Below are positions 3,598 through 22,152 of a stretch of 64,000 nucleotides of DNA, piece by piece. Below the pieces are notes generated by a model. The model searched no databases, was not told where the DNA came from, and was given only the letters and a program-made list of their open reading frames with translations. Every line of letters begins with the position of its first letter. Positions within the stretch are counted from its first letter, which is position 1. The position numbers and the translations under genes are program-made. Source of the stretch: a virus (Duplodnaviria > Caudoviricetes); IMG/VR virus record IMGVR_UViG_3300009648_000003, positions 1 to 64,000 of that record; one strand, given 5' to 3'.

Positions 3598-3625
3598 AAA
3601 ATAGGGGGAAACTAATCCCCCTAAT
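3598..3625 (-). terminator. intrinsic terminator after the major tail protein extension
   Basis: TAGGGGGA-loop-TCCCCCTA hairpin followed by TTTT on the minus strand. Confidence 0.65.
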
Positions 3626-3656
3626 ATACTCACTGGTTTTACCCACACCCGATTAC

Positions 3657-3899
3657 CTAAATTTCTTCTTCTAAAACTACAGTTATTGTTATAGGCTCCT
3701 CCCCTATAATAAAAGTATCTTCCTTTGTTATAAATCCTTCTTTACTCACTGTATAAGTGTAAAACCCACTATTTAGTGCATATACACCCTGTTCTTCTGG
3801 TGGAACTAAATTATCATTTACATCTTTGACTATTACATCAGCATCTTCTGGGGTTACATCAAATACCACAATACTTTTTAGGTTATCAGGTGGTGCTGT
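3657..3899 (-). CDS. PEGA/Ig-like beta domain, probable C-terminal readthrough extension of the major tail protein
   Basis: In frame with the MTP directly after its TGA; TAPPDN linker, then VVFDVTPEDADVIV...GFYTYTVSKEGF; no SD before GTG 3869. Confidence 0.65.
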   Translation of the reverse strand, partial: TAPPDNLKSIVVFDVTPEDADVIVKDVNDNLVPPEEQGVYALNSGFYTYTVSKEGFITKEDTFIIGEEPITITVVLEEEI

Positions 3900-4724
3900 T
3901 CAACCTAACTCATCAACCTTACAATCTGTTATGGATTCCCCTGATTGGTATCTCTTTATAGATCCTATTTTCCCATCTGGTCTTTCTGGGTCTAAAATCT
4001 GTAGCTCTATTGCAGATGTTGAAGCAGTAGCTCTTTGAGCATCTATAGAGAAAGTACCTCTTGCCTGACACGCATAAAGTTCTGTTTCAATATCTTGCTT
4101 GGTACCATCTTTCTGTTGGAAAGAACCATGATGAATTACATGAACTGGGAAAGGTACCTCATCTGCTAGTATATCTGCCACACTCATATTATCAACTTTG
4201 TACTGATATGCAGCTATTACCACATCCCCAATCTTTACATCACTATGATCTATAGTGACAGTAGTAATATCCCCACTAGTTTCTACAGTAAAGGAATCAC
4301 GAGGAATTACTTTGTTATTTCTCTCCAATCTTAATGTGATACTATCTTCAGGGTGTAATTCATAAGGTAATTGTAAATCTGATATTGGGTGTTTTAATAC
4401 TATTGTCTTATTTGATTGAACAGTATGTTTTTCATTTAAAGACCACGCATTACCTTCACCACTAGTAATATTAGAACCCATCATTAAAGATATAGCATTT
4501 AAATCAAATTTAGCATCTGTACCAGTTATAGTAATTGATTTTGATGTCACTATACTATCTATAGCAAATAAACCATCCCCACCAAATACATCATCTATCT
4601 CAGTTGTTAAATCTATTCTTAAATCCTGCAACGTACCCAGAGTGATTAATTCTTTTTCACCATCGGGGCATATTCTCTTTGCTAAAAGAGTTCCCACCCC
4701 TTTTATAACCATCTTACGATTCAT
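3900..4724 (-). CDS. major tail (tube) protein
   Basis: 274 aa, beta-rich, between head-tail genes and tail chaperone. Confidence 0.75.
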   Translation of the reverse strand: MNRKMVIKGVGTLLAKRICPDGEKELITLGTLQDLRIDLTTEIDDVFGGDGLFAIDSIVTSKSITITGTDAKFDLNAISLMMGSNITSGEGNAWSLNEKHTVQSNKTIVLKHPISDLQLPYELHPEDSITLRLERNNKVIPRDSFTVETSGDITTVTIDHSDVKIGDVVIAAYQYKVDNMSVADILADEVPFPVHVIHHGSFQQKDGTKQDIETELYACQARGTFSIDAQRATASTSAIELQILDPERPDGKIGSIKRYQSGESITDCKVDELG

Positions 4725-4736
4725 AATAAAACCTCC

Positions 4737-5168
4737 TTATATTAATATAGAAAATTCAAATACAACAGTAAAACAATATATATTTTCCTCATCTACACTA
4801 CTCTCATGAGCAGTAATAAATCTTGATTCTAAATTCTCCATTCCACAGAATGGAAGGAGTTTTTTATCAAACATTGATGCTAATTCTTCCGCAATCCTAT
4901 GAGCACAATCTACATCATCAAATGTAAATATATTAAATACAAAAGGAGCTACATACACTGTATCGTTATTCCTATCTAAATTGCCAGGGGGAGCATAAAA
5001 TGCTATTAAAGGAACATTATCCACTAAATTCTGTGGTTTTGCTCTTTTTTGTATTTTTTTAGCCTTTTCAAGATTGTTAGAATCACTACCCATTCCTAAA
5101 TAGTATAGGATATTGTTATTGCTAACTATCAAAGTATAAATATTATTGTATAAATTAACTACCTGCAC
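4737..5168 (-). CDS. putative tail terminator/completion protein
   Basis: 143 aa immediately upstream of the MTP; size and synteny. Confidence 0.55.
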   Translation of the reverse strand: MQVVNLYNNIYTLIVSNNNILYYLGMGSDSNNLEKAKKIQKRAKPQNLVDNVPLIAFYAPPGNLDRNNDTVYVAPFVFNIFTFDDVDCAHRIAEELASMFDKKLLPFCGMENLESRFITAHESSVDEENIYCFTVVFEFSILI

Positions 5169-5180
5169 CTATCCACCCCC

Positions 5181-5975
5181 CTAACCAACCTTATATCTTT
5201 CACCTATAGTTATTTTCTTATTTATGTGAAAAATCTTTAACTTTGGGTCAAATATATCAACCTTCATAACAGCTTCTTTATAAATATCCAACATTTCATT
5301 ACTAACTTCTTCAACAGCTTCTTCAAACCAATAATATGCCTTTATATCCTCACCTATATAATCCCTAAATTTCTTCACCAACTCAGCATATTTATTAGCA
5401 TCCATTGGCACAGGGGGTTTAACATTACCTATACCGCCCAATCTAGATGTAGTTTCTCTTAAATTTCCGCCTAAGTCTCGCCAATAACCATCATATTTAT
5501 TTCTACTTACTATTGGAGCTCCAACATGAGGTAACCGATAAGGATTCACATCTCCCATACTTGGGGGCATATTATATTTAGAATAACCTTCAGGGTCTGA
5601 CTCCTCACCAGTACCAATTTCATAGTACCAACCAACGTGAGAATCTTCAAAATTGGAAGCCATAGCTGAAACAGATGCTGTAATTACAACCTTGCCGTAA
5701 TAACTAGCAAAATTATCCACATGCATACGTGCATGTCCTTCTTTATCGACAGAATTCAACAATGCTGCTTTTCTATCAGCATCACTAGTAACAGTACCAT
5801 CTGCCATATGCACTGGGTTGTCCTTAAATGGCAATACTTCTATGTTACGAATAATAGTATCATATAGTAATTGTCTTATTTCCCTTGTAGCATCCATTAA
5901 AGCCTTTTTCATTTCCGCCTCATATTTATCTAAATCAAAATACATTACATAGTCGGTATTCTTCAATCTTGCCAT
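5181..5975 (-). CDS. putative neck/tail-completion protein
   Basis: Synteny; ...YYEIGTG... and C-terminal AYYWFEEAVEE resemble the HK97 gp10-like pattern. Confidence 0.45.
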   Translation of the reverse strand: MARLKNTDYVMYFDLDKYEAEMKKALMDATREIRQLLYDTIIRNIEVLPFKDNPVHMADGTVTSDADRKAALLNSVDKEGHARMHVDNFASYYGKVVITASVSAMASNFEDSHVGWYYEIGTGEESDPEGYSKYNMPPSMGDVNPYRLPHVGAPIVSRNKYDGYWRDLGGNLRETTSRLGGIGNVKPPVPMDANKYAELVKKFRDYIGEDIKAYYWFEEAVEEVSNEMLDIYKEAVMKVDIFDPKLKIFHINKKITIGERYKVG

Positions 5976-14138: not shown

Positions 14139-15844
14139 CTTCTTCCCCCCGCTCCAAATATTAATGGGATAGCAAAGTGCTCTGTTTGTTCGGGGTCATC
14201 CATAGAACAAATCCAAGCTGCTGCTGCTCTAGCGTCACTAAAGTCCTTTGATTTATCTCTATCGTGGTCAATTTTATTGCCATTTAATAGTTTTATTGCT
14301 TTTAGCTCTTCATTTGCGTTTAGTCGGTTTTCATCCATTCCATTATCTATTTCATGGTCTAAGAGGGCTATATTCCCTGTATAAATCAATCCTTTTAAGT
14401 TTTGGTATATTTGTACTTGAAATGGATTAGAGAAGTTCTTATCTTCAGCTTCAACCCCATATGACATTAATCTTTGAACTACTTCGGCTGAATTAAATTT
14501 ATCAAACATAGCTTTTTTAACATGTACTTGCTGGCATATTTGTTCCAAAACATCTGCTACATTCAATAAATCAACTGGTAACCTATCCTTTTTTGATGGT
14601 TGCCACTCTAAAAGTAAATCTTCAACAGGTTTGTTTACCCACTTTTGTATTTTTTCACCATTTTCAACTATTTCTATAAGGGTGGGCTCAGCATGCATTA
14701 AACAAATTACATAACTATCAGACTTCACACCACCGTCTCCACCTATATAATAAGTGTATGATGGGTCTAATACTAGGTTGTGAAGTTCTAATCCAATAAA
14801 ATGTCGTTCTTCCCCATTAGATAATGTCCTTGTTGAAATAGTTTCTTGGACAATTAAACTATTATTTTGTGCTTTTTTACCTAACATAATCACTTCATCA
14901 ATTTTTTCAGGAAATTGAAATAACCCTTGTGAATATAGCGGTGGTTCACATTCGTATAACATTTTTGCTCTTTCAGGATCTCTGTCATACTCCATTTGTA
15001 AACTTTCTCTGGTTATTGTAGGGTTAACCTCCCATGATTTTCCTTTTATTGCATATACTTGTGGATTAGTCTCGGCTTCTTTAAACTTTTTCATCATAAA
15101 CCCATCAGAACTTCTAGGGAAGCTAATAAATATTAGTAATACTTTCTCACCAAATCTTGTAACTGCTGAAGATCTTAGTGTAGTATATGCACTTTCAGCA
15201 GCTACAGGGTCAAAACCATCAATCTCATCAAATATAACCACTAGTGGATTAAATCCTTCGTATGAATCAGCTTCTGAGTGTGCAGAGTGAGCTGTAATAT
15301 TTTTATAAAATCTTACTTGGTTTTTTGTTAATTGAAAATCTCTGTGGGTGGCATTACGAGTTTGAGATGGGTTATAATTCACTCTTTTAAACCACTTACA
15401 GTTACTTAGTTTTGCTTTAAATTCGGAAAAGAACACATTATTCGCTTGATAAGCATTGATAGCCATATTTATTAAATCAATTGGTGTATCTTTCCCAAAT
15501 CCAAAATAACCATGAGGATCATTCAGGCATAGTACTACATAGCACATATAAGCCAGAATAGAAGATGCTAGGAAGTCTTTTCCACTTCCTTTTCCAAATA
15601 ATGTGCATAGTTCAGTTACTCTTCTTAAATTTTTAGGGCATGCATTTTCATTTCCAATTATTTTATATTGTACTATGCTATCAACTATTTTTATTAACTC
15701 TGTTTGTTTACCTGGGTAGGGTTTTTCTCCTAAAAAATTGGGAGAGGTAAAGAAGGTCATAAAATCTACTGGTTCTTCTTTCCATACCCCTCCTGCATCT
15801 ATTTTACTTTCCGCAATACTTATAAATTCTTCTAATAAATCCAT
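14135..15844 (-). CDS. terminase large subunit
   Basis: Walker A GKGSGKD, Walker B VVIFDE, C-terminal nuclease (GGDGGVKSDS...KIDHDRDKSKDFSDA). Confidence 0.9.
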   Translation of the reverse strand: MDLLEEFISIAESKIDAGGVWKEEPVDFMTFFTSPNFLGEKPYPGKQTELIKIVDSIVQYKIIGNENACPKNLRRVTELCTLFGKGSGKDFLASSILAYMCYVVLCLNDPHGYFGFGKDTPIDLINMAINAYQANNVFFSEFKAKLSNCKWFKRVNYNPSQTRNATHRDFQLTKNQVRFYKNITAHSAHSEADSYEGFNPLVVIFDEIDGFDPVAAESAYTTLRSSAVTRFGEKVLLIFISFPRSSDGFMMKKFKEAETNPQVYAIKGKSWEVNPTITRESLQMEYDRDPERAKMLYECEPPLYSQGLFQFPEKIDEVIMLGKKAQNNSLIVQETISTRTLSNGEERHFIGLELHNLVLDPSYTYYIGGDGGVKSDSYVICLMHAEPTLIEIVENGEKIQKWVNKPVEDLLLEWQPSKKDRLPVDLLNVADVLEQICQQVHVKKAMFDKFNSAEVVQRLMSYGVEAEDKNFSNPFQVQIYQNLKGLIYTGNIALLDHEIDNGMDENRLNANEELKAIKLLNGNKIDHDRDKSKDFSDARAAAAWICSMDDPEQTEHFAIPLIFGAGGRR

Positions 15845-15855
15845 ATTATCAACTC

Positions 15856-16422
15856 CTACTTTCTGCTAAACACTTGCCCAATCCATTTAGTTTCTTGGGA
15901 CATTTTTAATTTTTCAATAATAATAGGTATGGATTGAGGACACTCTTCAGCTACTGTTTCTAATACAATTTCCATAAATTTTCTTGTATTTTCATAATCA
16001 TTTAGTTCTTTTTGAATTTCAATCATCATTTTTAACATTTCTCTCATTTCAGATGAGAGTGCTTTAAATTTATGGGGATCTAACGTTCTACCTTCTTCAT
16101 AAGCTTCACTCTCTAGTGCTTCTAGTAGAGTTGCAGTTTTCCCATAAAGTGTAGTCATTTCAGCTATAATATCCATGCTATTATTGACAACTGCCAACAT
16201 CTTTTTTTTATCTCTTTTTACCAATTCTCGATTTATTTCAGGTATTTGGTCTAAGAATCTTTGTACATTAGTAGCACTAATAGCATCTTTTGCTGGAACT
16301 TTTCCTGAAGCATTTAATTCGTCTGCAATAGCTTGGTATGATAACCCAGCATGTCTTAAATTAACAACATCTTGTTCTAGATTGTATTTAACTATTTTTG
16401 AGACATTTTTATTATATTCCAT
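15856..16422 (-). CDS. putative terminase small subunit
   Basis: N-terminal HTH (GLSYQAIADELN), directly upstream of the large subunit. Confidence 0.6.
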   Translation of the reverse strand: MEYNKNVSKIVKYNLEQDVVNLRHAGLSYQAIADELNASGKVPAKDAISATNVQRFLDQIPEINRELVKRDKKKMLAVVNNSMDIIAEMTTLYGKTATLLEALESEAYEEGRTLDPHKFKALSSEMREMLKMMIEIQKELNDYENTRKFMEIVLETVAEECPQSIPIIIEKLKMSQETKWIGQVFSRK

Positions 16423-16476
16423 TTTATCACACCCCTTCCATCCTGTAGTTTAGGGATTTTGCAAAAGTTGCATAAC

Positions 16477-16594
16477 AAATTATTCATATTTTGTAATTGT
16501 CCGTATATTAAAAACGAAACATAAAATATAAATTTCCTAAAAAATTATTCATATTTTGTAATTGTTCGTATATTAAAAGTGAAGCATTAAATAT
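16477..16594 (+). promoter_or_regulatory. tandemly duplicated phage-type promoter (TTATTCA-N15-CGTATATT x2)
   Basis: ~53-bp near-identical direct repeat with 65-bp period; motif halves at 16480/16502 and 16545/16567. Confidence 0.7.
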
Positions 16595-16651
16595 GAATGT
16601 TTTATAATTACACATGTTTGATATTAGTTATTTTGTGGAAGGGGGGATACT

Positions 16652-17269
16652 ATGAAAATGAGTATTCATAGAGCATTGGCAGAATTAAAACTACTTGATA
16701 AAAGAGTTAATAAGTATATTGCAGAGTCTTTACTATATTGCACACCTAAAAGAAAAGATGAAAAGAACATAGGCTCAGATACATTAGATGAGTATAAAAG
16801 AAAAGTTCAAAGCAATTTTGACTCAATAATGGCGTTAATAAATAGAAAAGAACAAATCAAAGCTAAGATTATGTACTCTAATGCTGTTACTAAAGTAGTA
16901 ATTGCTGGGGAGGAAATGACAGTAGCAGAAGCAATTGAAAAGAAAAATAATATAAAATATAAACAAAAACTATTAGAAAGATTAAAAAGAGATTTTTATC
17001 TGGCAAATAACCAGATAGAGACTGCAAATTCAGAGTTGCCTGACCGATTAGAATCTTTTTTAAAGGCTACTTTAGGGGATAACCCTTCAACTAAGGAAAT
17101 AGAAGCGATTTCAAAAATGTTTTATGATAAAAATGAACTTACATTGTATGATCCAATAGATATTGAAAAGAAAATTAATGATTTAGAGAAAGAAATAGAT
17201 AAATTTCTTACTGAAGTAGACTTTGTATTATCAGAAAGTAATTCAAGAGTCACTATAGAAGTAGATTAA
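16652..17269 (+). CDS. conserved coiled-coil hypothetical protein, possibly related to the DIP1984/DUF6847-like family
   Basis: 205 aa; internal pseudo-repeat MSIHRALAELK / MTVAEAIEKK; ends EVDFVLSESNSRVTIEVD. Family link is from recollection only. Confidence 0.6.
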   Translation: MKMSIHRALAELKLLDKRVNKYIAESLLYCTPKRKDEKNIGSDTLDEYKRKVQSNFDSIMALINRKEQIKAKIMYSNAVTKVVIAGEEMTVAEAIEKKNNIKYKQKLLERLKRDFYLANNQIETANSELPDRLESFLKATLGDNPSTKEIEAISKMFYDKNELTLYDPIDIEKKINDLEKEIDKFLTEVDFVLSESNSRVTIEVD

Positions 17270-17312
17270 TTTGTTATATTATGTGAACTAAGGGCTTTTA
17301 GCCCTTTACATA

Positions 17313-17576
17313 GTGGTTATCCGAAAACTAAAAACTTTAACCCCCTTGATAGTTTGGGTTATAACTATCATGCCAAGGTGAGTAGACCTGAAATCTACTT
17401 TGATTTAGAATAATATATTTAAAGGTTAAATCTTAAATTTTAAACTTTAAGGATTAAAATTTAAAGTTCAAGTTATCAAAGATTAAAATTTAAAGTGTAA
17501 AGTTAGATAAAATCCTTGATTAGGGTTTAGTGTTGGTTAAATCGACTATTAGTTCACCCCAAGGCTGGATAACCAC
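17313..17576 (+). ncRNA. putative structured ncRNA with 12 heptameric repeats
   Basis: 10-bp closing stem GTGGTTATCC/GGATAACCAC, several internal hairpins, AAANNTT-type repeats at 17421-17505; no ORF in the track. Confidence 0.7.
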
Positions 17577-17625
17577 AACACCCCACCTATTTTTTTATCC
17601 CCCTTTGTGGGTGGGGTGTATATAT

Positions 17626-17699
17626 GGAGAGTTAGCTCAACCAGGCAGAGCTATGGGTCATTAATCCCAATGTTGTAGGTTCAAATCCTACACTCTCCG
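17626..17699 (+). tRNA. tRNA-like gene with aberrant anticodon arm (identity undetermined)
   Basis: GGAGAGT/ACTCTCC acceptor stem, GCTC/GAGC D-stem, GTAGG-TTCAAAT-CCTAC T-arm; anticodon arm TGGG-TCATTAAT-CCCA; 3' end G-TCA. Confidence 0.75.
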
Positions 17700-17743
17700 T
17701 CACATTGTAAAATAATCCCTCTATGTTCTCAAAAACATATTAG

Positions 17744-17775
17744 TAAACCCCCTTATTACAGGGGGTTTATTTTTT
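17744..17775 (+). terminator. intrinsic terminator after the tRNA
   Basis: TAAACCCCCT...AGGGGGTTTA followed by a T-run. Confidence 0.75.
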
Positions 17776-17804
17776 GTTCAATTACATTGAACTTAACATT
17801 GACC

Positions 17805-17957
17805 TCACCCACGAACAAAAGAATGAAAATAAGCTGTTTCATCCAGTGTGTAGGGAGTTTTTTCTATCATTTTTTGTTTTGTTTCTTTAATGTGTTTTTT
17901 AAACATACCTTTTTCTTTTAATTCTTTGGTTCTATCATTACCATATTTAATTTCCAA
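17805..17957 (-). CDS. small basic hypothetical protein (50 aa, not in ORF track)
   Basis: AGGAGG SD, TTG start, MEIKYGNDRTKELKEKGMFKKHIKETKQKMIEKTPYTLDETAYFHSFVRG*. Confidence 0.55.
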   Translation of the reverse strand: MEIKYGNDRTKELKEKGMFKKHIKETKQKMIEKTPYTLDETAYFHSFVRG

Positions 17958-18021
17958 ATAAATGCCTCCTTTCTATGATATTATATTGTAAATAATGTAA
18001 TATTAATTTAGATTATAGGGA

Positions 18022-18912
18022 TTAAATTATTTTAGGTTTTATATTAGATAACATTATTTCAACAACTTCTTTTGTACCTTGTCTGCCTTGCCCAGTTAAA
18101 GTTTTTGTACTTATTTTATCCATATAAAGTGGGGGGTAGTGACGAATGAAATATAATAATTTCTTATTATAATATTCTCCACTTTGAAGATAATTAAAGT
18201 AAATAAAGGTACCACTAGTATTGGCTAAAAAGTTAAAGATGAAATCATCATCATGTTCTGAGAAATTAGTATCATACATATCTGTTCTTAGGATATATGG
18301 GGGATCTAGTATAATTAAATCATTTTTTGATGTATTATTTAAAATTCTTTTAAAATCTTCAGTAAAAAACTCATAATTTTTTTGTTTAAGTCTATTTGAT
18401 AGGGTGTTTAATTGTTCTATAATATTGATTTTCATTGTGTCACTAAAAAATTTTGTTTTGCCTTTAGCAAGCCCTCTAAAACCTTGATTAAATTCTCCTT
18501 TTCTATTAAACCTTACCATAGAATTGCTACACATTTTCAGTAATAGTGCAGTTTCATATATAAAATCTTTGTCATATACGTTATTAGAGTATTTACTATT
18601 CCAATAATTTCTAAATACATAGTAATCATCTTTATCTGAAAAATAATTCCATGATTCTATAATGACTTCTAAATCGTTAAAACTGTAGTTAAAATCATTA
18701 TCTCTCATAAAAGAGTAAAGTTTTGGTACTAGAGGAATATTATCATTCCCTATATATAATTCTGCGGGGGTACTGATGTTGAGAAGTATATTTCCAGTAC
18801 CCATAAAAGGTTCAATAACTCTTTCATACTCTCTCCCACGCACTATTTCGTTGATTTTATCTAAGTGTTTGTATTTATTTCCAACCCAATTAAATGGTGA
18901 TTTAATGTACAT
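18022..18912 (-). CDS. DNA adenine methyltransferase (Dam/D12 class)
   Basis: SPFNWVGNK start, EPFMGTG motif I, DPPY motif IV. Confidence 0.88.
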   Translation of the reverse strand: MYIKSPFNWVGNKYKHLDKINEIVRGREYERVIEPFMGTGNILLNISTPAELYIGNDNIPLVPKLYSFMRDNDFNYSFNDLEVIIESWNYFSDKDDYYVFRNYWNSKYSNNVYDKDFIYETALLLKMCSNSMVRFNRKGEFNQGFRGLAKGKTKFFSDTMKINIIEQLNTLSNRLKQKNYEFFTEDFKRILNNTSKNDLIILDPPYILRTDMYDTNFSEHDDDFIFNFLANTSGTFIYFNYLQSGEYYNKKLLYFIRHYPPLYMDKISTKTLTGQGRQGTKEVVEIMLSNIKPKII

Positions 18913-19230: not shown

Positions 19231-19557
19231 TTAGAAGTCAAATGAGTCTACTGCATTTAATATTGCATTGTTTAAATCATTATCTTGTTGTTTTATTGTA
19301 GATTGGTCTACATCATTATCATGAGATTGAGGCGGTGGGGTTTGGTATTCAGATAAAATTTCTTTTACTATTTCTCTTATTTTTTTCTCCAAATTATTCC
19401 CTTTTACCTCTTTATCTCTTATCATTTTTTCTCTCACAGCTTCTCTAACATATTCAGATGCTTTACCAGATTTTTTTAACTTCTCTAGGTATTCTATTAT
19501 ATCTTTATCATTTTCTGTGAAACTAAAAGTCATTCTGACATAGTTATTATCGCTCAT
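19231..19557 (-). CDS. ParR-like ribbon-helix-helix adaptor
   Basis: RMTFSF...ASEYVREAVREKM; directly downstream of the ParM-like gene. Confidence 0.7.
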   Translation of the reverse strand: MSDNNYVRMTFSFTENDKDIIEYLEKLKKSGKASEYVREAVREKMIRDKEVKGNNLEKKIREIVKEILSEYQTPPPQSHDNDVDQSTIKQQDNDLNNAILNAVDSFDF

Positions 19558-19573
19558 ATCTATCTCCTCTGCT

Positions 19574-20530
19574 TTATTGATTGTATTTTATTAATCCTAC
19601 TTTATAGAATCCTTCCACATTAGCCCAAATTGCATTATCTACAATAACAGAGTGTGGAAGATACTCTAATAATTTATCATGTATTAATAAACTAGTACCA
19701 CCTATAAATACAACATCCATCATATCTAGATTAAAATTGTTTTTCTTTGTTTCCTGAATTAATTTTAACACATATTGGTCAATAATGCTATCTATTACGT
19801 GTGAACTTTTAGGGTCAATAACACCTTTTACTTTTACACCACCTTGTCTTATTATATTTTGTATATCATTTGTTGTAAATGAAACCCCATACATACTATT
19901 CAGTTCGTTAATTAGCCTTATTTCTATTTCTGCATACCCATGATTTAAAGTAAACATTGAACTAGGTTGGGGGATTAGGTTGTCATAAATAGTAAAATTC
20001 ATATTTAATCCACCTAAATCTATAACTGCTACTCTTTTATCCTTGAATAATTCAGGTTTAGTATAAACTATCCCGCTACCTTCAGGTAATATTAAAATGT
20101 TTTCTATAAGGAATGAATAATGTTTATTATTTACTGTAATTTTTACATGACCATTATTCCAAATATAATTTTTATAATCATTCCTAAGCTCTTTATTACG
20201 GTATATACTCGTAGGACATCCTAATACTAGTCTAACAGCTTGATAGTTCTCTAAAAGTTGTGTGGTGGCGGTGTAAGTGGCTAACTTATGGTTTATATTA
20301 GCTTTATCTACTCTATAATCTATCTCTTCCCCTTGATCGCCTATAATATAATTATCTCCATCTAGTGTTACATTAAAACTTTTTCCTTGTGCTTCAATAT
20401 CAATGTTATTATTTAGTTTGAAAATCTTGGTCCTAAAATAAGTTTTGTCAAATGTTTTATTATTGTTTAATGTAATACCTTTAGTTGCAAATTTCCCTGG
20501 GTCAATACTAATTAATTTACTCTCTATCAT
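19574..20530 (-). CDS. parM: ParM/StbA-family actin-like partition ATPase
   Basis: IDPGKFATK, LPEG, VIDLGGLNMN and FIGGTS actin-fold motifs. Confidence 0.88.
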   Translation of the reverse strand: MIESKLISIDPGKFATKGITLNNNKTFDKTYFRTKIFKLNNNIDIEAQGKSFNVTLDGDNYIIGDQGEEIDYRVDKANINHKLATYTATTQLLENYQAVRLVLGCPTSIYRNKELRNDYKNYIWNNGHVKITVNNKHYSFLIENILILPEGSGIVYTKPELFKDKRVAVIDLGGLNMNFTIYDNLIPQPSSMFTLNHGYAEIEIRLINELNSMYGVSFTTNDIQNIIRQGGVKVKGVIDPKSSHVIDSIIDQYVLKLIQETKKNNFNLDMMDVVFIGGTSLLIHDKLLEYLPHSVIVDNAIWANVEGFYKVGLIKYNQ

Positions 20531-20543
20531 TATAATCCTCCTT

Positions 20544-20689
20544 ATTAATTTATATTAATTTATTGTATAATTTATACTTAACTATTCATAAATTATATTA
20601 ATTTGTATTAAATATTGCTATTGTATATATGATATTATATTAATTTGTATTAAATGTCAATATAATTTTCATATTTTATATTAATTTAT
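20544..20689. repeat. parC-like centromere repeats overlapping the parMR promoter
   Basis: ATTAATTTRT at 20544, 20554, 20597, 20639, 20680; 22-bp direct repeat at 20592/20634; minus-strand TTGACA at 20655-20660. Confidence 0.6.
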
Positions 20690-20700
20690 ATGATATTATA

Positions 20701-21753
20701 TTAAGATATTTGATCTAATAATTCATCCATATGGCTGTAATTTTTACCCTTTTTAGTTGCTGAATATACGTCGTAGATAATAAATTCAATACCATTTTTT
20801 GAATAATATTTATCTACTATTTTTATTATGTTGACTATTTTATCTAATATTTGATAAGGATAATGTTTGTCTTCAACAATAAATTCCAATGCCATCCTCA
20901 GTGTACTCATGCCCCATGTATTTATTTCTTCTTCTATTTCATCAAAAAAACTTTCTATATAATTTTTTCTTGCAATACATTCCAATACAAAATCTAAATA
21001 ACATTTTATAATTAATCTTATATTACGATCTCGTTCTATAAAATTCATGCATAATTCCCCAAAAGCAATATCCCCATTTATATAATCTTTAAATAATGGG
21101 AAAATAGTCCTTTCTATTTTCACTGTACGTTTACTTACAGAGGATTGAGATTTATTAAGCTTCCTGCATATTTCCACTTGGGGGGTGCCTTGGTAGTAGT
21201 TTTTGAGAATATAAATATCTTCTTCTGTTAAGAATATTTTACATAATACTTTTGCTATTTTTAAACTTTCTATTGTTTCATAATGTAATTCCACGTTAAG
21301 ATTGTCTTGTATCATATCTTTTATTTTTAGTTCATTACCATTACAGTCTTTTTTTACAACTCTTTCGAGATAATCAACATTATACGCATTTATTACTTCT
21401 AAAAGTTCTTCCTTGGTTACCTCAAGTTTTTCCACTATTTTGTCAAAACTGTACCCATTTTCAGTGTATTGTTTAAATTTTATATGTGTTTCATTAGCAG
21501 TTCTTGAAATACTCATATCAGCATTAGTTTCATACATACCTCTATAGATTGATCTTTGGATAGATGGGTAAGCATATGTTGAAAATTGGTACCCTTTTGT
21601 TGGGTCAAATTTTTTTATTGCTTTCAATAATCCAATGCTCCCTTCTTGGAATGCATCTTCATACTCTAAAGTTCCTACTAAATGTGGGTAATGTCTTTGT
21701 ATGATATGATGAACAAGATTTTTATTTTCTTGGTACATCTCTAAAGTATCCAT
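20701..21753 (-). CDS. sigma-70 family sigma factor with long C-terminal extension
   Basis: EDAFQEGSIGLLKAIKKFDPTKGYQFSTYA region 2; region-4 HTH (PQVEICRKLNKSQSSVSK); likely start ATG 21753 after GAGGAG. Confidence 0.85.
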   Translation of the reverse strand: MDTLEMYQENKNLVHHIIQRHYPHLVGTLEYEDAFQEGSIGLLKAIKKFDPTKGYQFSTYAYPSIQRSIYRGMYETNADMSISRTANETHIKFKQYTENGYSFDKIVEKLEVTKEELLEVINAYNVDYLERVVKKDCNGNELKIKDMIQDNLNVELHYETIESLKIAKVLCKIFLTEEDIYILKNYYQGTPQVEICRKLNKSQSSVSKRTVKIERTIFPLFKDYINGDIAFGELCMNFIERDRNIRLIIKCYLDFVLECIARKNYIESFFDEIEEEINTWGMSTLRMALEFIVEDKHYPYQILDKIVNIIKIVDKYYSKNGIEFIIYDVYSATKKGKNYSHMDELLDQIS

Positions 21754-22152
21754 AGTATCACTCCTCGTAATAAACATACGATTAAACCTATAAAAATAAA
21801 TAAAAATAGAGCCAAAAGGCTCCATTTAATTCACATGCCCCTAATTTTTATGGGGTATATTTTTAATTCTAACCCGCAGTAAAATTGTGATATTTTAACA
21901 AAATTTTTGGTGGGTGGGGAGTTCATAAGGAAGTTTTCTTACCTCTATTATAATACTCCTCCCCCATCTAGCTTCTCTAAATAATACTTTTTAGATTCTT
22001 CTACATTATTAGCAACTACTTTAAAGTAGTCATCCATTTGATATGCTCTCATTGATACCTCCTTTAGGTTTAATCCCATAGAATTTGTTTTAAATATCCC
22101 ATCATAAAGAATATATGAATTCTTTGTATTTGTTAGATAAATATACCTATTA

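Follow-up and report, generated by a model that had tools for sequence, protein, structure and literature searches.

The DNA analysed here (the window) is the first 64 kb of the IMG/VR virus record IMGVR_UViG_3300009648_000003, a Caudoviricetes genome of 103,942 bp with direct terminal repeats and a G+C content of 32%. On its plus strand lies a compact unit made of an open reading frame (ORF) for a 205-aa protein, a non-coding element, a tRNA gene and a terminator; the TerS-like and TerL genes run the opposite way. An earlier note, made by reading the letters, had described such a unit divergent from the terminase, and most of its parts lie where that note put them. The ORF and the tRNA are separated by 355 nt of non-coding DNA. 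The element starts at 17313, directly downstream of the ORF end at 17269 and in the same orientation. The search for terminators gave none between ORF and tRNA, the first terminator-like site being that at 17742, and hence ORF, RNA and tRNA form a single plus-strand unit. Our comparative analysis indicates that positions 17313-17576 are a real structured non-coding RNA. Moreover, we think it fairly probable that the gene and the RNA are the two halves of an undescribed ribonucleoprotein, usually residing in tRNA operons. The components of the unit are as follows.

16465-16529 and 16530-16594, plus strand: 65-bp tandem duplication with 86% identical copies, between the TerS-like gene and the 205-aa ORF
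16652-17269, plus strand: ORF of the 205-aa helical protein (phrog_1491), the presumed protein partner of the RNA
17290-17313, plus strand: GC hairpin (17290-17306) followed by TACATAG (17307-17313), abutting the first base pair of the RNA
17313-17576, plus strand: complete structured non-coding RNA, 264 nt counted from the outer P1 pair, supported by covariation and RNA-library contigs
17581-17616, plus strand: spacer hairpin CCCCACC / GGTGGGG, then TATATAT, between RNA and tRNA and kept in relatives
17626-17699, plus strand: tRNA, homologue of the tRNA-Asn(GUU) of relatives, 50 nt 3' of the RNA
17742-17781 (core 17742-17771), plus strand: intrinsic terminator ending the ORF-RNA-tRNA unit, the sole strong terminator in it

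Within the RNA, we distinguish the following parts.

17313-17323, plus strand: 5' strand of P1, pairing with 17566-17576 in an 11-bp clamp that includes a closing G.U
17323-17335, plus strand: conserved, A-rich joining strand GAAAAC..AAAC; the RAGATH-27 consensus aligns here
17343-17369, plus strand: H-type pseudoknot, CCC (17343-17345) with loop GGG (17356-17358), containing P2
17348-17354 / 17363-17369, plus strand: P2 hairpin, 4 of 7 pairs compensatory
17382-17398, plus strand: P3, a variable hairpin (stem of 5 bp, loop CYUGAAA of 7 nt), partly compensatory
17419-17503, plus strand: heptad rail of twelve units with U.AA anchors, flanked by structured domains
17504-17565, plus strand: 3' domain with the GAUAAAAUC motif, P5, P5b and P6, backed by the R1 model (see below) and covariation
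17514-17518 / 17560-17564, plus strand: P5, a long-range helix enclosing P6
17523-17525 / 17557-17559, plus strand: P5b, in the 3' domain
17528-17531 / 17545-17548, plus strand: P6, with a conserved 13-nt loop
17566-17576, plus strand: 3' strand of P1, partner of 17313-17323

The fold predicted from the single sequence is mildly better than that of shuffled sequences (z of -2.6 on the plus strand and -3.3 on the minus strand). Hence, the case for an RNA rests on the comparison with relatives. Protein relatives at 64-79% identity occur on metagenome contigs from digesters and fermenters, where the order is TerL, TerS, the divergent gene, a gene-free stretch of about 700 nt and then a tRNA or two. 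From this group, thirteen distinct RNA copies align end to end. We examined them with a structure written from the window sequence, 500 shuffles and slid controls, and found 96.6% of cells paired and 14 pairs with compensatory changes. None of the 500 shuffles equalled this result, and the slid controls were 32-43% paired. The clamp was paired in 100% of cells, with compensatory changes in 5 of its 11 pairs, and P6 showed them in 2 of 4 pairs. In P3, which lies in a poorly aligned region, 79% of cells were paired, and its 5' half is deleted in two relatives (L007 and L009). The P3 loop (17387-17393; CYUGAAA, 7 nt on a stem of 5-6 bp) is kept in most close relatives and is reminiscent of an anticodon arm. 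The pairing letters of the pseudoknot are invariant within this close clade, so that it yields no covariation signal there.

The close relatives also tell the strand. Seven types of G.U pair are valid on the plus strand only, as they would be C.A on the opposite one, and therefore the RNA is read from the plus strand. These data bear out the closed, structured RNA that the earlier note had proposed, with some corrections. The closing stem, claimed to be 10 bp long, has 11 bp when the closing G.U is included. The hairpins suspected near 17347-17370 and 17381-17399 are real and lie at 17348-17369 and 17382-17398. Conversely, the two local hairpins drawn near 17510-17528 and 17532-17546 have to be redrawn, since the comparative data favour P5 enclosing P6.

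The most distinctive part of the RNA is the rail. One of its twelve units (unit 8, 17468-17475) is 8 nt long. Positions 1, 3 and 4 of the unit are fixed (U.AA), positions 5 to 7 vary, and the register is invariant in all 13 close relatives. The autocorrelation at lag 7 is 0.60, a value that none of 20,000 shuffles attained at any lag from 2 to 14, and the rail is the most 7-periodic stretch of the whole genome. The second-best stretch, at about 37,940, was considered as a related element and rejected, being an A-rich small ORF. RNAalifold predicted no consensus helix in the rail on the alignment of close relatives. The register of twelve had been recognised in the earlier note, which argued that its fixed positions fit repeated binding sites better than slippage. 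We concur, because anchors that stay invariant at a 7-nt spacing while the spacers vary are better explained by repeated binding sites.

The rail consensus differs by lineage, being UUAAA in the clade of the window phage and UCAAAG in T5-like and Bacillus-type representatives. Outside the window phage's clade, unit numbers are by-eye readings, and a scripted unit count on 80 loci could not separate downstream from upstream regions. An irregular unit after the seventh was observed at 17468-17475 in the window, at about 3844-3853 in Clostridium phage D-1873 (L046), at about 3900-3913 in Brevibacillus phage Jenst (L045) and at about 7803-7811 in L137. The break in D-1873, Jenst and Pseudobacillus badius is a UCUUAU-type insert at the same place as the 8-nt unit of the window. 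The rail may thus be made of two parts, of 7 plus 4-5 units.

An exact 17-mer scan of IMG/VR returned 26 matches, of which one (L021) is real and the remainder are due to chance, and a distant-mode blastn search with 16430-17800 against 50,697 phage records recovered pieces of the coding part only. The protein leads further. Its homologues in Jenst, D-1873 and the T5-like Enterobacter phage KKP_3711, at 37-44% aa identity, are followed by a gap without annotation that contains heptads of the CAAAGUU type together with a related 3' end. The gene and RNA pair is also present at non-phage sites in the chromosomes of Pseudobacteroides cellulosolvens and P. badius. We define here a heptad-rail RNA class, characterized by about 8-14 units of 7 nt with fixed AA-containing anchors and by a 3' domain with an AAAAUC motif and P5/P6. 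The window has all of the class features, namely the P1 clamp, the 5' pseudoknotted hairpin, the heptad run, the 3' domain and the upstream gene. In a script check of seven lineages, the clamp, the hairpin and the pseudoknot between its loop and the upstream strand were found in all seven and P5 in six, with no clean placement for P5 in P. cellulosolvens. The letters differ by lineage, and the RNAs range from 242 to 392 nt. The pseudoknot covaries across these lineages, reading CCC/GGG, CGC/GCG, CCUC/GAGG, AGGU/ACCU or GUCU/AGAC.

The coupling of the RNA to the gene was assessed with R1, a covariance model of the 3' domain only (83 positions, 15 training sequences). On the window RNA, which is part of the training set, R1 scores 88.7 bits. 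The test set consisted of 51 IMG/VR loci of protein relatives (35-46% identity) absent from training. A single full-length match was obtained in 47 of the 51 loci, 40 of them at E<=0.01. All matches lie on the strand of the gene, 180-650 nt past its end, and there are none elsewhere. Gene and RNA are specifically linked across very distant lineages. An independent measure agrees: of 80 loci, 56 showed an excess 7-nt periodicity of at least 0.30 downstream of the gene and 2 showed it upstream. YGAAAAC, from the A-rich joining strand, occurs within 200 nt past the stop codon in 49 of 80.

Public sequencing runs that contain the window phage come from digester and sludge metagenomes. A metatranscriptome yields a contig whose entire length of 265 nt (depth 42.6) falls on 17321-17585 with no differences, and a second run of that study gives a 189-nt contig on 17388-17576. 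A run from another study, possibly of DNA, has a 226-nt contig on 17335-17560. In a DNA run of the metatranscriptome study, the RNA site is spanned by an assembly of 90.8 kb. Over 15800-18300, the RNA-library contigs cover neither the ORF nor the tRNA and are uninformative on the expression of these two. Altogether, the contigs are a consistent hint of a stable species of about the size of the clamped element.

The protein belongs to a widespread family. It matches phrog_1491 over its full length (E 4.1e-59; residues 2-204 on profile positions 4-209 of 211), and the label "tail fiber protein" that this PHROG carries found no support in our analysis and is probably wrong. Grouped at 50% identity, its relatives form 3,483 clusters at E<=1e-3, including 1,614 at E<=1e-30, in a profile search of 1.84 billion representatives, and tblastn places the family in 745 deposited phage genomes (Salmonella/Escherichia T5-like, Pseudomonas, Vibrio, Bacillus, Lactococcus and others). 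An IMG/VR search with the single protein as query returned no relatives; they came only with an alignment as query. Searches of Pfam, NCBIfam and PADLOC gave nothing meaningful (noise in NCBIfam, zero matches in PADLOC). The AlphaFold (AF2) model has a pLDDT of 86 and is mainly helical with short strands, and Foldseek and two VIA searches with it returned only generic helical bundles (syntaxin, 14-3-3, ABC-transporter helices).

When two copies of the protein were modelled together, the homodimer score was 0.63, and the best of three controls reached 0.00; among benchmark proteins, 0.63 is attained by 20 of 30 solved as same-chain pairs and by 1 of 23 solved as single chains. Contact agreement between runs was at least 91% and the pLDDT of the partner at least 89. 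The predicted interface is symmetric (isologous), with the same residues on both copies, 19-125 and 158-174. The two-copy model supports self-binding, short of demonstrating it, and suggests that the base unit is probably a symmetric dimer. The ring or filament with one subunit per heptamer that the earlier note had imagined is disfavoured by this model, as the predicted dimer is symmetric and not head-to-tail. Several conserved polar residues lie outside the named interface residues (K13, D16, R18, R65, S76, T80, K98, D190, S194, S196, N197 and T200), and these would be the obvious candidates for RNA contact.

The company that the pair keeps is mostly tRNA genes. Of 80 loci, 44 have a tRNA no further than 1.5 kb away, and all 139 tRNAs share the orientation of the gene. 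Relatives have one tRNA or two (Trp, Asn or Ser) behind the RNA. In the window, the gene at 17626-17699, called tRNA-like in the earlier note, is probably a true tRNA, with 50.8 bits in the Rfam model RF00005 (gathering score 29). Compared with the tRNA-Asn(GUU) of relatives, the anticodon stem has its 3' strand off by one base, so that the stem keeps 4 bp and the loop has 8 nt (UCAUUAAU); ARAGORN reads the anticodon as "att". Either decay of the tRNA or an unusual decoding function could account for this. A search for RtcB (PF01139) found none in the genome of the window phage.

The hairpin-plus-TAYATAG module that abuts the RNA is also found in relatives just 5' of the first tRNA (L041, 1085-1115; L043, 3060-3090). 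The module, more loosely a hairpin plus TA(C/T)ATA(G/T) and seen in the window at 17290-17313 and 17581-17625, may be a shared upstream processing or start signal of each stable RNA. TACATAG as a phage-wide promoter word was rejected: the genome has 19 copies, most of them within genes.

Other observations concern the surroundings of the pair. In Jenst, a skipping-rope RNA (3625-3702) stands between the gene and the heptad RNA, and BsrG (4160-4434) follows the latter. D-1873 has a drum RNA downstream (4398-4505). A relative of 96.8 kb (L003) has an IS605-type TnpB gene at 4291-5535 (OrfB_IS605 plus a Cas12f1-like domain) right after the tRNAs that trail the RNA. In the locus L074, the variable region of the RNA contains at 2290-2345 a T-arm-like piece (GGTTCGATTCC) followed by a D-arm-like piece (TAGCTCAGTCGGGAGAGC), an insert that looks like a permuted tRNA. 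As for the window phage itself, the earlier note had spoken of a duplicated phage promoter upstream of the ORF. The duplication is there, but a search of 16465-16594 for a sigma-70-like consensus found none. Inverted-repeat pieces occur in this duplication, which might serve as an operator, as a site bound by the terminase or as a promoter recognised by the phage's own sigma factor. On the minus strand at 19231-21825, 2-4 kb from the unit, are genes for an actin-like partition ATPase (phrog_691; ALP_N in relatives), a small upstream partner and a 374-aa sigma factor, which suggest a plasmid-like prophage lifestyle and phage-specific promoters.

How, then, might gene and RNA work together? In our reading, the 264-nt RNA would be released from an ORF-RNA-tRNA transcript by processing, possibly through the hairpin-plus-TAYATAG modules ahead of the RNA and the tRNAs. 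The RNA body is closed by the 11-bp clamp, with the 5' pseudoknot and the 3' P5/P6 domain as two structured caps that may shield its ends. Dimers of the helical protein would bind the periodic U.AA(A/G) anchors of the 85-nt rail and form a ribonucleoprotein whose size is defined, such as several dimers spread over the twelve sites. The core of this reading is the pairing of RNA and protein; the cellular role is a guess. With low confidence, we suggest that the particle could act on tRNA or damaged RNA during infection, because the pair is nearly always found within co-oriented tRNA operons. It might shield or escort tRNAs, or serve as a decoy for host RNases that target tRNA. An anti-defence decoy, one of the roles listed in the earlier note, is a candidate. 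That dimers on a 12-site rail make a particle of fixed stoichiometry that protects, escorts or mimics tRNAs against tRNA- or RNA-cutting host defences is, as a whole, unlikely.

Several points weigh against the pairing of RNA and protein. The 13 close relatives belong to one syntenic phage lineage and are not independent as regards the coupling of gene and RNA. R1 found no match in 4 of the 51 test loci, a T5-like locus among them, and the homology of the T5-like RNA is one of architecture, judged by script and by eye. The 51 distinct 3' domains have 7 of 8 pairs compensatory and 96.5% of cells paired, counts that are somewhat inflated because the alignment was fitted to R1. The RNA-library contigs prove neither transcription nor the ends nor the strand of the RNA, as an RNA library can contain DNA, and levels cannot be read from them. 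Neither Pfam nor the fold searches, with their generic helical bundles, found a recognised RNA-binding domain in the protein. In addition, the symmetric interface of the model would by itself fail to explain a repeated arrangement of one protein per unit. Finally, co-transcription or co-processing alone could preserve the gene order.

Among the alternatives, the one that survives best is that the RNA acts alone, as a sponge or decoy for a host RNA-binding protein or RNase, or as an assembly like ROOL or GOLLD, and that the gene is a passenger or a chaperone. The AU-rich rail without a predicted helix would suit such a role, the RNA appears by itself in the RNA-library contigs, skipping-rope and drum, two orphan phage RNAs with no known partners, are found at these loci too, and the protein is without a known RNA-binding fold. 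However, the order of gene then RNA, the strand and the distance are kept from Firmicute phages to T5-like phages and chromosomes, which is hard to reconcile with a passenger. Moreover, the drift of the rail consensus between lineages fits a co-evolving dedicated partner better than a universal host factor. We consider this explanation rather unlikely.

A cis-regulatory 3' untranslated region, by which the protein would bind its own mRNA and autoregulate stability, translation or read-through into the tRNA, is very unlikely in our opinion. The RNA is always adjacent to the ORF and co-oriented with it, with no terminator between them, as this explanation expects. Nevertheless, a 264-nt body with clamp, pseudoknot and 3' domain exceeds what autoregulation needs, the RNA-library contigs match the element alone, and the hairpin-plus-TAYATAG module delimits the element just as it does the tRNAs.

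The RNA-antitoxin module suggested in the earlier note, in which the protein would be toxic and the repeat RNA would neutralise it, recalls type III toxin-antitoxin systems: a protein gene stands beside a repeat-bearing RNA, and the pair occurs in mobile elements and bacterial chromosomes. Known type III antitoxins consist of tandem repeats of about 34-36 nt that are cut by the toxin, and their RNA lies upstream of the toxin gene. Here, units of 7 nt are part of one large folded RNA located downstream of the gene, there are no long tandem repeats of that kind, the protein has no PADLOC match, and the pair is embedded in the tRNA operons of lytic phages, all of which makes this kinship barely credible.

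The least probable explanation of all is a packaging accessory, likewise raised in the earlier note, be it a packaging RNA (pRNA) like that of phi29 or a DNA element (iterons, pac site or origin) next to the terminase, as twelve units would match a 12-fold portal but adjacency to TerS/TerL is peculiar to the clade of the window phage, and elsewhere the pair sits in tRNA clusters or chromosomal sites away from terminase genes. The RNA has no pRNA match in Rfam at E<=10 and the phage has packaging genes of the TerS/TerL type, whereas pRNA of the phi29 type belongs to phi29-like phages with protein-primed DNA. The DNA-site variant is effectively excluded because compensatory changes and G.U pairs in helices 250 nt apart are the signature of an RNA.

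A ribonucleoprotein made of the 205-aa protein and the heptad-rail RNA would be relevant in several respects. The gene family is usually labelled "hypothetical" or "tail fiber", and the RNA behind it is unannotated save for an 86-nt orphan fragment in Rfam. If gene and RNA are regarded as a single conserved unit, two orphans become a system that can be tested in tractable phages, such as T5-like coliphages and Bacillus phages. An RNA in which a strict 7-nt rail runs from one knotted cap to another has an unusual architecture, and its fixed spacing could reveal how a helical protein recognises single-stranded RNA. The association with co-oriented tRNAs points to unexplored phage tRNA biology, a field now tied to the escape from tRNA-cutting defences. 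If the tRNA-operon particle were real, it would represent a novel kind of RNA-based machine, for counter-defence or for the response to RNA damage, in large phages, T5 relatives among them, and in some bacteria.

In line with the earlier note, which could assign the unit to no named system, the RNA element has no Rfam match at gathering score in a scan of the whole window, nor at E<=10 in a scan of 16000-18500. A full-text literature search found nothing on the function of DIP1984, DUF6847 or RAGATH-27, nor on the gene-RNA pair; the name RAGATH in phage papers refers to RAGATH-18, and a 2026 preprint on mining co-evolving non-coding elements leaves the pair unmentioned. On the protein side, the nearest candidate is DIP1984/DUF6847 (PF20935; crystal structure 3KDQ), likewise a small helical protein. 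One of 32 family members reaches the PF20935 profile at E 0.0012, and 16% of the members of the nearest named ESM-Atlas cluster (score 0.87) carry PF20935. The window protein itself has no PF20935 match at E<=1, nor at E<=10 in a one-genome search (gathering score 27 bits). In Foldseek, 3KDQ ranks fifth as a weak match (E 0.43, TM 0.25/0.32); it is absent from the matches listed in the VIA searches and from a search of PDB sequences with the family profile at E<=10. This kinship is a lead, not a result.

Other systems resemble the pair in the way they may work. TRAP and HutP of Bacillus, acting on the trp and hut leaders, are oligomers that read triplets every 5-6 nt and every 7 nt, respectively. 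Short anchors at a fixed spacing in single-stranded RNA make them the best analogy for the reading of the rail. They are beta-rich rings unrelated to the helical 205-aa protein, whose Pfam results include no family of the TRAP or HutP type, and they operate terminator switches in mRNA leaders, in contrast to the clamped stand-alone RNA described here. Ro60 (Rsr) with Y RNA or YrlA is a system of bacteria and phages, associated with tRNA-like modules and operons for RNA repair; it shares with the pair a dedicated protein and a stand-alone RNA closed by a long end stem. The 205-aa protein differs from Ro60 in not being a TROVE-domain ring, a heptad rail is absent from Y RNAs, and the Rfam scan of the RNA element gave no YrlA or Y_RNA match. 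In the CsrA/RsmA system, sponges of the CsrB/RsmZ type also bear many short protein-binding motifs on one RNA, but these are GGA motifs in hairpin loops, irregularly spaced, and the protein gene lies elsewhere, whereas the window has a strict period and an adjacent gene. TRAP, HutP, Ro/Y RNA and Csr are the nearest functional analogies, none of them related by sequence or fold.

The T4 species 1 and 2 RNAs, skipping-rope, drum, ROOL and GOLLD are, like the window RNA, structured non-tRNA RNAs within or next to tRNA genes of phages. Comparison of the window RNA with them gave no match in sequence or structure, and we know of no dedicated adjacent protein gene or heptad rail in these RNAs.

A single piece of the RNA has been catalogued, RAGATH-27 (RF03100), an orphan candidate small RNA of 86 positions. 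In the window, it scores 16.1 bits at 17310-17370 (E 0.77 in the genome; gathering score 76.1) and ranks third in the genome, below two noise matches. Its consensus (..CCGAAAACU..AAACU.UAA.. followed by a hairpin) is in register with 17310-17370, the A-rich strand (CGAAAACU..AAACU.UAA) and the P2 stem being aligned at high posterior. Among 20 related loci, RAGATH-27 passes the gathering score in one, L074, a true match of 92 bits right behind the gene. The Rfam model covers less than one third of the RNA: clamp partner, pseudoknot, rail and 3' domain are missing from it, and it names no protein partner. Since the RNA of L074 goes on to a rail and has the P1 clamp and the shared 3' domain as well, the comparison of sequences indicates that RAGATH-27 is a 5' fragment of one lineage of the larger RNA class defined here.

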